Below, in pieces: positions 44,301-47,300 of a stretch of 64,000 bases of DNA (the first letter of the stretch is position 1; every line of letters starts with the position of its first letter). A program made the position numbers. The stretch comes from Escherichia coli (lineage in GTDB: Bacteria; Pseudomonadota; Gammaproteobacteria; Enterobacterales; Enterobacteriaceae). Location of the stretch: NCBI RefSeq assembly GCF_045037415.1, contig NZ_CP173438.1. One strand, 5' to 3'.

Positions 44301-47300
44301 CTCCAATCTATATTTTGAAACTCGAGAGTACACAACCAATTGGCATCAGAACGTGGGTAGGCAAGAAGTTGCCACTCCATAGTTCTGGAGTTGGTAAGGC
44401 TTTATGTGCGTGGTTACCTCAAGACGTCATTGACACATTGTTGCCTGAGGAAACGTTGCCACGATTTACGCAAACAACTATCACTCGTAAATCTGATCTA
44501 ATACAGGAATTTGCACGTATTCGTGAACGTGGATGGGCTTTTGATAACGCAGAGGATTCACCGGGAATTTATTGTATTGCTGCTCCGGTATTTAATCAGA
44601 CTCGTGAAGTAATTGCAGCTATCAGCATTAGTGGCGTGGAAATTCAGATACCTAAAGAAAAAATTGAATATTATTCAACTTTGGTTCTTGATGCGTGTCA
44701 AGAACTATCGGAAAAATTAAAATATATCTGAATTGAATATGTAAGATGTATAGCATCATAATATATGGTATTATATTTTTATGAAAATTAATAGTTTTAT
44801 CTGGCATTTATCAGAGTACGTATATAACAAAGAGAGTGTTTTTCTTTTTAAGCGATGATTTTATTTTATCCTGAACAGTTACTTTCACCTAAGAATATTT
44901 TTATATATTAAGTTGATGTTACCTGCTAACGTCAATATTTTATTGATGGTAGCTAACTTAGTAATTATATAAAAAACTTTTACAATATCCGAGAGTATGT
45001 ATGCATAATGTATGCGCCCCCCTATCAGGCTGTCTCTTATACACAAATCCCCACCCGGGGATTTGTGATGTCTGTCAGTCTGCTTTAGGGGGGACTCTTT
45101 CCATTCGGTAGTTTCCTTCCTCCCCGGCAGCGATTTTTTGAACTTTTTCTTCACCCGTTGATCTTCTCTTATATTTCATTTTCTTCGGGTCTGTTATGGT
45201 ACTTTCTGATTGTTATTCATGGGATAACGAGCAGTTTGGACATGCCCGTCTCGGTGATCCGCGTCGTACACGACGCCTTGTGTCACTGGCCTCTTCTCTC
45301 GCTCAGCATGCAGGTCTTTCTATTGTGAAATCATCCCACTCCACTGCTCAGGTTGAAAGTGCGTACCGCCTGATACGTAACCCGTCTGTGTCCCCGGAAG
45401 CCATTGCCTAAGCCGGATTTACCGCCACTGCAAGGGCATGTGAGGCTCATCCGCTGCTCCTCGCACTGGAAGACACCACCACTAATCGTAAGCGTACAGC
45501 GAGGGCCGTATTGACGGGGATGTGTTATTCAGCTGGCAGTGCTATACGCCACGGAAGCAGTTCGCTGACCCGGTTGACCGGCCAGTCTGCTATGACGCCA
45601 AGCACATGGCGAAGGTAGCTTTCTGGATCCACGTCATTCAGTTTGCACGTCCCGATCAGGCTGTACAGTAGCGCTCCCCGCTCACCACCATGGTCAGAGC
45701 CGAAGAACAGGAAGTTTTTACGACCCAGACTGACCGTCAACGCCACAATCTTTGACTGTTTGACATTGTCATGCCCGCAGGCCAGCGAATCTAAAGACAT
45801 CAGACTGCTTGCATCAGCCAGTTGCGTATCTGGCTATGTCCCTTAATTGGTAAGGGTTCGAGGAACTCAACATTAACGCATTTTTCCGCCCATCACCGGC
45901 AGTGTATATGAACGATTGCACTCTTACGATGGTTGATTTATTTGGTTGCGTAGGGGCTAGCTAGTCTGGTACCGGAGGCTGGATCTGAAGTACTGACCCC
46001 AAGAATAACGCCGGGCAGACTCATATTCTGACCCATTGTCAGCCCGCGTGTTTACTGCTCTAGCTCATTTCCTGTTGTCAGGCGTTCAATTCCCAACTGC
46101 AGGTTATGGCCCGGTGCACAAACACCTGACGGCAGGTATCACTTACCCAAAGAAGATAAAGCCCTCAAGAGGCAGTAACTCTGCCAACCTCTCCTCCGGC
46201 CACTCCGGGCAGACGCGTTAGGACGTCCGTCAGCCAAGCATGTGGCTCCAGACTGCTGTTTCCAGAAGGCTCATTATCTGTGCCGCTCGGTTCCCGGCCA
46301 TCAGTGAACCAGCGAACAACCAGGCCTTTCGTCCCATAACGACCGGACGGATAGCACGCTCGCAGATATTGTTGTGTGTGCCTTGAAATGCACAATCTTT
46401 CCGTCGGTGAAAGTCCGCCCCGACTAACTCTCGCTCCAACTGGAAGGACAGGAAGCGGTCCAGGAGGTAACAAAAGGGCTGAATCTCTCCCTGAAACGAC
46501 TTCTTCAGGAAGTCAATGGGTTATGCGGGCCGTAACGTGAGTGAACACTGAGCAGCCATCGAAATGCCGTCGATGGTGCCGATACGCCACAATAACGGGG
46601 AAGGCCGACGATGACCGGGAAGAGAGTGAGAAAGGCATCGGTCATACCCACCGGGGTAGTGGTGTCAGCATGCATAACAATTGATCGATCGTGCAACAAG
46701 AGAAGTCCATAACGATGCCTGTCCGGGTGACGGGCAACAACGCCTCCCGAGGGGGTGAATCGGTTGTTATGGATGGCAGATGGGGTGTAGTAGTGAAAAT
46801 ACTGAGTAATGTCATAGGAGCGAAGGCCCCCTGTTGCAGTACCAGTGTAACATGCAGGAAGAGCCCGGGGATTGCCATCAGCCTCACAACCCCGCTCGAA
46901 CCGGTTCAGAACCTACAGAAAATACTACAGGAGAAAGCAAAGTGAACCTCCCCGTGTTTCCTGTTTATCATTTTCTGGTCAGTGCCGCGATTCTGGTATT
47001 CGTGGTGATTTTCTGGCGGACACACCATCGCGACCACCGTAACTGGCTGGCTCTACGGCTATTCGTATTATGCTCTGTAAACCGTTGGCCATTGCGGATG
47101 GTTAAAGGAACAATAGGTGCTAATAAATCTCGAGTTTTTAACTCAGCGATATTACGTTCACCAAGCGCTGCAAAAAGATTATCTTCAAGACTTTTTAGCA
47201 CACGATGGGCGTGATCTTCAGACCACTTTTTATTGGTGCCATGCCACTCAATCGCGACTTCTTTAAAGGTTCGTGCTTTACTCTGTTCAACCTTATCATT

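Follow-up and report, generated by a model that had tools for sequence, protein, structure and literature searches.

Nested mobile-element fragments and a truncated group II intron at the leuX end of a KpLE2-type island in Escherichia coli

In E. coli K-12, the tRNA gene leuX carries KpLE2, a cryptic element with the order intB, IS2, yjgX, yjgZ, IS4/insG, nanXY and further genes. The corresponding locus in the window (the 64,000-nt stretch of E. coli contig NZ_CP173438.1 analysed here) is crowded with insertion sequence (IS) debris, which raises the question of which elements left these fragments and whether they record repeated invasion or an inherited scar. Positions 45030–47558 consist, in this order, of an ISEc13 left end, five bases, an ISEc8 right end, 113 bp of K-12-type backbone, a second IS66-type right end, the 5′ segment of a group II intron, a yjgX fragment and a truncated P4-type integrase gene. 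With a probability of roughly 0.88, the stretch represents nested dead mobile-element fragments in the leuX-proximal part of a KpLE2-type island, formed in two layers of events and with no functional-looking member. All matches exceed chance by a wide margin, their BLAST E-values lying between 0 and 2e-98; identities and limits of the fragments are read directly from the alignments. The main value of the analysis is the correction of annotations, including that of K-12 YjgZ; the biology is not changed in a major way.

The ISEc13 and ISEc8 remnants

The first fragment (45030–45482, plus strand) is the left end of ISEc13, an IS50-like element of the IS4 family. It comprises the inverted repeat CTGTCTCTT..., a 5′ leader and transposase codons 1–96. 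The IS50-like end CTGTCTCTTATACACAAAT begins at 45030 and aligns with the left end of full-length ISEc13 (1552 bp; reference locus L007, 2501–4052), to whose nt 1–454 the fragment is 96.5% identical. Its reading frame encodes the Tn5-type N-terminal DNA-binding domain (Pfam Tnp_DNA_bind, PF14706; E 1e-18 at 45196–45411), contains a stop at codon 72 and is cut before the catalytic domain. The ISEc13 right end AAGAGACAG occurs nowhere in the 64-kb window, and the copy, limited to nt 1–454 of 1552, retains no complete DDE transposase, second inverted repeat or 9-bp target duplication.

An earlier note on this DNA had described an IS50-like end cut by an IS66 element. This two-element stack was confirmed, with the ISEc13 left end meeting the outer end of ISEc8. 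The IS50-like end indeed stops abruptly before the IS66 right end, although ISEc13 homology ceases at 45482 and not at 45487. In pairwise alignments with the ISEc13 and ISEc8 flanks, the intervening bases TAATC (45483–45487; spanned by the pattern GGAAGACACCACCACTAATC) belonged to neither element and are regarded as a junction filler of uncertain origin. In view of this filler, a clean transposition of ISEc8 into ISEc13 is no more than putative. No genome representing a pre-ISEc8 intermediate was found; the best ISEc13 match outside ST131, in strain PBP8, sits at an unrelated locus.

The ISEc8 (IS66 family) right end at 45488–45736 (minus strand) includes the inverted repeat GTAAGCGTACAG... 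together with some 70 codons from the 3′ end of tnpC. Its terminal inverted repeat is of the GTAAGCG type (GTAAGCGTACAGCGAGGGCCG, with 45488 as the first base) and is identical to the ISEc8 right end; over 249 bp, the fragment shares 99.6% identity with intact ISEc8 (2442 bp; reference locus L008, 3001–5442; 8-bp target duplication AGTGTTTC). The domain DDE_Tnp_IS66_C (PF13817) was detected with E 1.3e-17. Compared with intact ISEc8, only 10% is kept (the last 249 bp), without tnpA, tnpB, left end or target duplication. It is the right end of the same element as copy 1, the ISEc8 at 6152–8440 (plus strand), as had been noticed; the sequences are, however, 98.7% identical and not fully so. Copy 1, whose flanks are not duplicated, carries a 153-bp in-frame deletion in tnpC, and because it lacks these bases the fragment seems to stop at 45711, whereas it ends at 45736. 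BLAST of the region against the sequence of the window itself revealed no internal repeats apart from this match to copy 1. The window contains at least four IS66-family sequences, as previously counted: copy 1, an ISEc23/IS682-type element at 32539–36517 (minus strand) interrupted at about 32770–34204 by an IS110-family element, the ISEc8 fragment, and the remnant at 45850–46375 discussed below.

When the window was compared with both ISEc8 and K-12, the last ten bases of the ISEc8 fragment (45727–45736, AGACTGACCG) proved common to ISEc8 and the K-12-type backbone, forming a microhomology at the deletion junction. This ISEc8/backbone junction is present in only ~450 genomes. The adjoining 45737–45849 lies outside the second IS66-type element and within the contiguous 97.2% match to K-12, and is, as far as tested, not IS-derived. 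It is quite improbable that it is what remains of a third IS66-family tnpC, now strongly diverged, to which the ISEc8 tail was joined by recombination between homologous transposase genes at a conserved VSLG-coding site instead of by a microhomology-mediated deletion. The antisense translation ...GHDNVKQSKIVALTVSLG/RKNFLFFGS loosely resembles ...IDNNIAENALRAVSLG/RKNFLFFGS of ISEc8, but nucleotide similarity past the ten shared bases is at chance level, the K-12 counterpart runs leftwards into non-IS66 sequence (SLGDKKAQYS...) and the reading frame has no Pfam DDE_Tnp_IS66 match. An assignment of 45737–45849 to diverged ISEc8 was likewise rejected at the nucleotide level (score 9 versus 8.2 ± 1.3 for shuffled sequences). 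The segment is treated as KpLE2 backbone.

The second IS66-type remnant, the intron fragment and the integrase

Another, divergent member of the IS66 family (IS-B) is represented by its right end at 45850–46375 (minus strand). A putative inverted repeat (GTAAGGGTTCGAGGAACTCA, 45850–45869), which aligns with the end of a relative in O157:H7, is followed by a non-coding end of ~295 nt (45870–46164) and by ~70 codons from the end of tnpC (46165–46375), in which a 10-bp deletion and a frameshift occur near 46253. The remnant is 83.8% identical to the IS66-family tnpC beside terW in O157:H7, and homology extends into the non-coding end and inverted repeat of the O157 element. Its TnpC matched DDE_Tnp_IS66 (PF03050; E 5.5e-8, profile positions 255–282); the score for PF13817 (E 6.6e-5, 23.4 bits) fell below the curated cut-off of 30. 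The outer inverted repeats of the O157 relative were located by a custom scan, a general repeat search having returned only those of IS682. Its own ends pair at 15 of 20 positions, and the window repeat matches the O157 left end modestly, at about 12 of 20; the outer end at 45850 is hence putative and could be ~13 bp off. The element belongs to an unnamed subtype different from that of the O157 relative; the literature on IS682 and IS683 provided no name for it.

The presence of a second IS66 remnant of a different subtype had been recognized in the earlier note, with an extent of 46139–46960 that does not hold. More than two thirds of that interval are made up of the 5′ fragment of a group II intron and a yjgX fragment. 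The tail does not abut the integrase gene either, as the intron segment and the yjgX-type fragment lie between them. The interval 45847–46138, formerly left unexplained, was assigned by alignment with the O157 relative to the terminal inverted repeat and long non-coding end of the second element. A layout in which the IS66 tail covers 46139–46960 up to the integrase gene, with 45847–46138 as foreign DNA, can be regarded as refuted: there is a genuine tnpC C-terminal domain signal at 46165–46375, and tblastn extends very weakly (30%) into 46448–46612, but homology to an uninterrupted IS66 tnpC ends exactly at 46375, where the motif GTGTG starts. Moreover, 46401–46540 scores above the Rfam group II cut-off, 46376–46942 is 76–90% identical to introns with reverse-transcriptase reading frames, 46943–47112 is yjgX, and 45863–46164 aligns with the non-coding end of the O157 relative.

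The segment 46376–46942 (plus strand) is the 5′ part, 567 nt long, of a group II intron. It starts with GTGTG, runs through domains I–III/IV and ends ~19 codons into the reading frame of the intron-encoded protein (...PLEPVQNLQKILQEKAK). GTGTG at 46376 fits the group II 5′ sequence GUGYG, and the domain I–IV structure is captured by Rfam RF02003 (46401–46540; 66.3 bits versus a cut-off of 49, E 1.3e-13); the covariance model also matched the K-12 counterpart. Truncation of the copy at 46942 leaves only the ~19 N-terminal codons of the reverse transcriptase/maturase. For domains V–VI, no RF00029 match was obtained anywhere in the window, whereas the full-length Azotobacter relative has one. Nucleotides 1–567 are 90% identical to an Enterobacter plasmid copy and 76% identical to an Azotobacter plasmid copy.

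The intron lies antisense to the interrupted IS66 tnpC, inside the Asp codon of the conserved motif I-D-N-N-x-x-E-R (bordering exon sequence ...GATATTGTTGT/). The O157 tnpC represents the uninterrupted site and reads straight through, and in the Azotobacter copy the exons rejoin to ...YLPID/NNRAER.... The same exon/intron boundary was found in seven loci, the window and six others, with divergent IS66-family tnpC genes. As a separate observation, one Azotobacter plasmid carries two different introns ~130 bp apart within the same tnpC. The intron fragment occurs in 1545 of 5426 complete E. coli genomes (~28%, K-12 included), nearly always as a single copy. Among the matches listed it is unannotated in RefSeq, and the lineage is absent from the 2012 survey of Enterobacteriales introns. 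The K-12 "protein" YjgZ is a chimeric reading frame composed of antisense intron sequence and the frameshifted IS66 transposase tail.

The intron is followed by 170 bp from the interior of a phosphoethanolamine-transferase pseudogene, yjgX in K-12 (46943–47112, plus strand; annotated in RefSeq for JJ1887 and K-12); this fragment is contiguous with K-12. The N-terminal ~150 codons of a P4-type island integrase, K-12 intB, extend from 47112 to 47558 (minus strand; 99.4% identity to K-12), with the Pfam domains Arm-DNA-bind_3 (PF13356, E 1.7e-29) and Phage_int_M (PF22022, E 6.8e-12). The catalytic C-terminal domain is absent, the gene being cut at about codon 150 by the junction at 47112, where 3.5 kb of K-12 sequence are missing and a 1-bp overlap is seen. 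The island attachment site leuX, encoding tRNA-Leu(CAA), was identified with ARAGORN and Rfam at 47745–47829 (minus strand), 187 bp from the integrase gene. Because the catalytic domain has been removed, the leuX island is immobilised in ST131-type genomes.

Two probable layers of events and a reported RNA

The region from about 45724 to 47112 is contiguous with K-12 KpLE2 at 97.2% identity, and 47112–48200 matches at 99.4%. The second IS66 remnant, the intron and the yjgX junction thus form a single block, which speaks against the repeated invasion of the island proposed earlier. Given this contiguous match and the frequency of the intron fragment among complete genomes, the block 45727–47112 is an old scar that was inherited ready-made and not the product of recent invasion. 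The ST131-type arrangement is marked only by the ISEc13/ISEc8 part and two deletions, so that only part of the IS debris in these genomes is specific to their arrangement.

The following order and mechanism are a reconstruction. In the old layer, shared with K-12, a divergent IS66-family element would have entered the island. A group II intron may then have retrohomed antisense into its transposase gene and come to interrupt the Asp codon of the I-D-N-N motif; close relatives of the intron encode no endonuclease domain. A single deletion would subsequently have taken the 3′ two thirds of the intron, the remaining IS and the 5′ part of yjgX, giving the junction at 46942/46943. In the young layer, confined to the ST131-type, ISEc8 may have inserted into, or become joined to, a copy of ISEc13. 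A deletion from 249 bp inside ISEc8 to the island backbone would have led to fusion over the 10-bp microhomology, and a second deletion probably joined yjgX to integrase codon ~150, with loss of the catalytic domain and fixation of the island. Intermediate genomes that fix the order of these events were not found.

An Hfq-stabilised RNA of ~300 nt, ig-yjgZ-insG, has been verified by Northern blot between yjgZ and insG in K-12 (PMC4152368). This K-12 interval corresponds to 45727–46142, with its leftmost ~80 bp replaced by ISEc8 in the window. Given this RNA, the absence of any function is not strictly proven for 45737–46142. The second IS66-type element likewise has a non-coding end of ~300 nt, and one may ask whether the K-12-shared block was kept through domestication, with ~45737–46142 encoding the Hfq-dependent RNA. 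This is very improbable, since K-12 and the window diverge by 2.8% in the block as opposed to 0.6% in the adjacent core, which gives no sign of constraint, and the block is missing from ~72% of E. coli genomes. Furthermore, the search for signals gave a single weak terminator-like site and nothing resembling a promoter, folding energies on both strands were no better than those of shuffled sequences, and ISEc8 has taken the place of the left ~80 bp present in K-12. In 45850–46164, neither structured RNA (folding z-scores +1.8 and +0.9) nor a promoter-like site was detected. Similarly unlikely, if somewhat less so, is a broader proposal: that the non-coding part of the scar (~45737–46142) gives rise to ig-yjgZ-insG, an sRNA that would have been drawn from transposon remains and kept by ST131-type genomes, and, as a separate point, that the intron represents an apparently undescribed enterobacterial lineage homing antisense into the I-D-N-N-coding motif of IS66-family transposase genes. 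The reading as nested, dead fragments is therefore preferred.

Comparison with known elements

Both the IS66-tail/intron junction and the intron/yjgX junction of the window recur in K-12 KpLE2. In contrast to K-12, the window lacks the 3.5 kb comprising the rest of yjgX, IS2 and the integrase C-terminus, as well as IS4 and nanXY, and its left side consists of ISEc8/ISEc13 debris and another gene set. The terW-adjacent IS66 element of O157:H7, which has GTA-type ends, is ~84% identical to the window copy in a stretch that takes in the tnpC tail and the long non-coding part of the right end. It differs by a 150-bp tandem duplication of its end, by having no intron and by being itself split by IS682, whereas the window copy bears the 10-bp tnpC deletion.

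The intron on the Azotobacter salinestris plasmid NZ_CP045303 (locus L005, 4001–~5996) affiliates with the same Rfam family and likewise interrupts an IS66-family tnpC antisense at I-D/N-N. This copy is complete and has domains V–VI and a 428-aa RVT_1+GIIM protein, while the window retains the 5′ 567 nt only; full-length copies also occur in Burkholderia. E.c.I3 is a group II intron inside IS679, an IS66-family element of E. coli and Shigella, and also parasitises the conserved C-terminal part of the transposase gene (PMC3522654). An identity of the window intron with E.c.I3 was rejected: the two share no nucleotide similarity, belong to different Rfam families (D1D4-2 for E.c.I3, D1D4-4 for the window intron) and differ in orientation and site, E.c.I3 lying in sense at GRKNWL/F and the window intron antisense at I-D/N-N, ~20 codons upstream. 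The window intron adds a further case of an intron lineage that has specialised in one conserved motif of transposases, parasitising what is itself a parasite.

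Insertion-sequence ends to the left of leuX

The tRNA-Leu(CAA) gene leuX (47745-47829, minus strand) has the core genes ahr, yjgR and lptGF on its right and a genomic island on its left. The core region also contains Ysr276 (53844-54038, minus; 174.7 bits) and two tandem naRNA4/CssrE repeats (54872-54947 and 54970-55045, both minus), all above the Rfam gathering score. The debris on the island side, 45030-47558, is ordinary insertion-sequence debris, which the earlier note spotted rightly and parsed in part wrongly. Its fragments are independent elements and do not align as one contiguous known element. 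Many ST131-type E. coli chromosomes (e.g. JJ1887, O25b:H4) match the 2.2 kb around the noted stretch with 100% identity. RefSeq annotates five pseudogene scraps, namely fragments of an IS4/Tn5 DNA-binding protein (45196-45483), an IS66 transposase (45525-45734), a 'transposase domain' (46143-46373), a phosphoethanolamine transferase (46957-47115) and an integrase N-terminus (47097-47558), and no feature between 46374 and 46956.

The leftmost fragment starts at 45030 with the ISEc13 end CTGTCTCTTATACACAAAT. Positions 45030-45482 share 96.5% identity with nt 1 to ~454 of a complete ISEc13 copy (1552 bp, L007 2501-4052, its 9-bp duplication near-perfect), and the ORF encodes a Tn5-type DNA-binding domain (PF14706, E 1e-18) before a stop at codon 72. 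At the junction with ISEc8, ISEc13 reads ...CACCACCATTAACTTC... and the window ...CACCAC TAATC GTAAGCG. Since the window departs from ISEc13 after CACCAC, the five bases 45483-45487 are given to neither element; the IS50-like end formerly said to stop at 45487 is the left end of ISEc13, with homology ending at 45482. An 81%-identical relative of 45030-45367 occurs in many other genomes and in K-12 at ~59.3 kb, where it is annotated solely as 'transposase DNA-binding-containing protein' and represents a further old fossil of IS50-like type, sited at an unrelated locus.

Next comes ISEc8, with its right inverted repeat GTAAGCGTACAGCGAGGGCCG at 45488; 45488-45736 is 99.6% identical to an intact ISEc8 (2442 bp, L008 3001-5442, target duplication AGTGTTTC). 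This end had been called identical to that of copy 1, the IS66-family element at 6152-8440. Both are ISEc8; because copy 1 lacks 153 bp (51 codons) of tnpC, their match halts at 45711 with no more than 98.7% identity, while the fragment truly ends at 45736. The copy 1 deletion is in frame (...EKMKTL|FFGS...), and the 8-bp flanks of the copy 1 element differ, with no duplication (AAATAGTG versus TTTTGTTC).

Elsewhere in the window, an IS110-family element (32770-34204; DEDD transposase of 377 aa, 32818-33951) lies within an ISEc23/IS682-type element (32539-36517) and splits its IS66-family tnpC directly after ...ALRAVCLGKKN; JJ1887 carries the uninterrupted form, so the window derives from another ST131-type strain. 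Just beyond, an 82-aa HTH_Tnp_1 transposase-helper ORF (36713-36958, plus), 39% identical to ISEc8 TnpA, may be a fifth IS66-related scrap, HTH_Tnp_1 not being specific to IS66.

The block shared with K-12

A BLAST comparison with a K-12 MG1655 derivative returned two collinear segments, window 45724-47112 (L002 8002-9389, 97.2% identity) and 47112-48200 (L002 12889-13976, 99.4%). From ~45727 to 47112 the window is therefore one contiguous piece of KpLE2, the cryptic K-12 element at leuX; in K-12 this piece sits between IS4/insG and yjgX. On the left of the block, the match to ISEc8 and the match to K-12 share AGACTGACCG (45727-45736), and 45737-45849 resembles ISEc8 at chance level only, a pattern characteristic of a microhomology-mediated deletion that fused the ISEc8 interior with the island backbone. 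On the right, the block ends at 47112 (1 bp overlap), and 3.5 kb of K-12 sequence are missing there, comprising the remainder of yjgX, the whole of IS2 and the C-terminal part of the integrase. The repeated invasion of the island proposed earlier is not borne out, the IS66-type end, the intron described below and the yjgX junction being one inherited block common to K-12. Divergence from K-12 is 2.8% in the block versus 0.6% in the neighbouring core, and the block displays no apparent sign of constraint.

Within this block, 45986-46375 is 83.8% identical to the IS66-family tnpC next to terW in O157:H7, where IS682 interrupts the copy. Aligned to that gene, the remnant has its tnpC stop at 46165 and a frameshifting 10-bp deletion near 46253; homology stops exactly at 46375, where the O157 gene runs on and the window changes to GTGTGCC. 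Leftward, the remnant goes on aligning with the O157 element's non-coding end (~300 nt), to at least 45863. The ends of that element pair at 15 of 20 positions (GTATTGTTCCGGCGAACTCA / GTGTCGTTACGGGGAAGTCA), and the window at 45850 reads GTAAGGGTTCGAGGAACTCA. By these alignments, 45850-46375 is the right end of a related element, its end placed to within ~13 bp. The stretch 45847-46138, previously left unexplained, is thus its long 3' non-coding region with a putative inverted repeat at the outer end. In the O157 relative (NZ_AP018488, L006 534-840) the right end, inverted repeat included, is tandemly duplicated over ~150 bp and overlapped by an annotated 'hypothetical protein'.

The group II intron fragment and YjgZ

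The second IS66 tail had been drawn at 46139-46960; a tnpC tail does extend to 46375, and most of the interval is a group II intron fossil. Rfam family group-II-D1D4-4 matches 46401-46540 on the plus strand (66.3 bits, cut-off 49, E 1.3e-13) and the equivalent K-12 position (69.1 bits). Positions 46376-46942 are 88-90% identical to Enterobacter and Salmonella plasmid copies and 71-76% to Azotobacter and Burkholderia ones, and all these matches end at 46942. The copy on an Azotobacter salinestris plasmid is complete (L005 4001-~5996), with a domain V-VI match and a 428-aa protein containing RVT_1 and GIIM and no detected endonuclease domain. In the window only the first ~19 codons of the protein remain (...PLEPVQNLQKILQEKAK), and domain V-VI is absent throughout.

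Seven loci were compared (window, K-12, Enterobacter, Azotobacter, Salmonella and two Burkholderia plasmids). In each of them the intron 5' end adjoins the same codon of an IS66-family tnpC, on the antisense strand, and the exon encodes N-N-x-x-E-(R/N)-x-(I/L)-(R/K)...G-R-x-x-W-L-F despite widely differing tnpC genes. The two exons of the complete copy rejoin as ...YLPI-D|N-N-RAER, which places the intron inside the Asp codon; the same boundary in divergent genes indicates a lineage that homes, in antisense orientation, to a highly conserved segment of IS66-family transposase genes. Of 5426 complete E. coli genomes, 1545 carry the fragment, almost always as a single copy and with no annotation among the matches listed. 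About 448-450 genomes have the composite that includes the ISEc13/ISEc8 part, each at 99% identity or more.

The K-12 'Uncharacterized protein YjgZ' (AAC77233.1) is exactly the 109-aa ORF at L002 8421-8750 (minus), with a 102-aa form in the window (46165-46473, minus). It opens with ~32 codons of antisense group II intron, its middle is out-of-frame IS66 tnpC, and only the final ~35 residues are the true TnpC C-terminus, whose frame is regained because of the 10-bp deletion. YjgZ is accordingly a chimeric ORF, almost certainly spurious and very probably no real gene.

The adjacent yjgZ-insG interval of K-12 corresponds to window ~45727-46142. From this interval of K-12 an Hfq-stabilised RNA of ~300 nt, 'ig-yjgZ-insG', has been reported and verified by Northern blot (PMC4152368). 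Its length is close to that of the dead element's ~300-nt non-coding end. The region tested contains no promoter-like site and one weak terminator-like site, and folding energies were no better than those of shuffled sequences on either strand. Domestication of the window equivalent as a functional RNA is unlikely.

Comparison with known introns

A 2012 survey of group II introns in Enterobacteriales records one MG1655 fragment, in CP4-6 (271415-273178), and does not record that in KpLE2 (PMC3522654). Identity with E.c.I3, the known IS679-borne intron (strain 536, L011 2053-3876), was ruled out, the two having no nucleotide similarity. They also differ in Rfam family and site: E.c.I3 is of type D1D4-2 and lies in sense orientation at GRKNWL|F, whereas the window intron is of type D1D4-4 and lies antisense at I-D|N-N. 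Both homing sites (I-D|N-N and N-F/W-L|F) are lost in the copy 1 deletion, which on its right stops within 1-2 nt of the E.c.I3 insertion point, and the IS110-family insertion lies within a few codons of the sites of both intron types. A single Azotobacter salinestris tnpC (NZ_CP045303, L005 2119-5996) hosts two different group II introns ~130 bp apart, which Rfam assigns to D1D4-2 in sense and D1D4-4 in antisense orientation.
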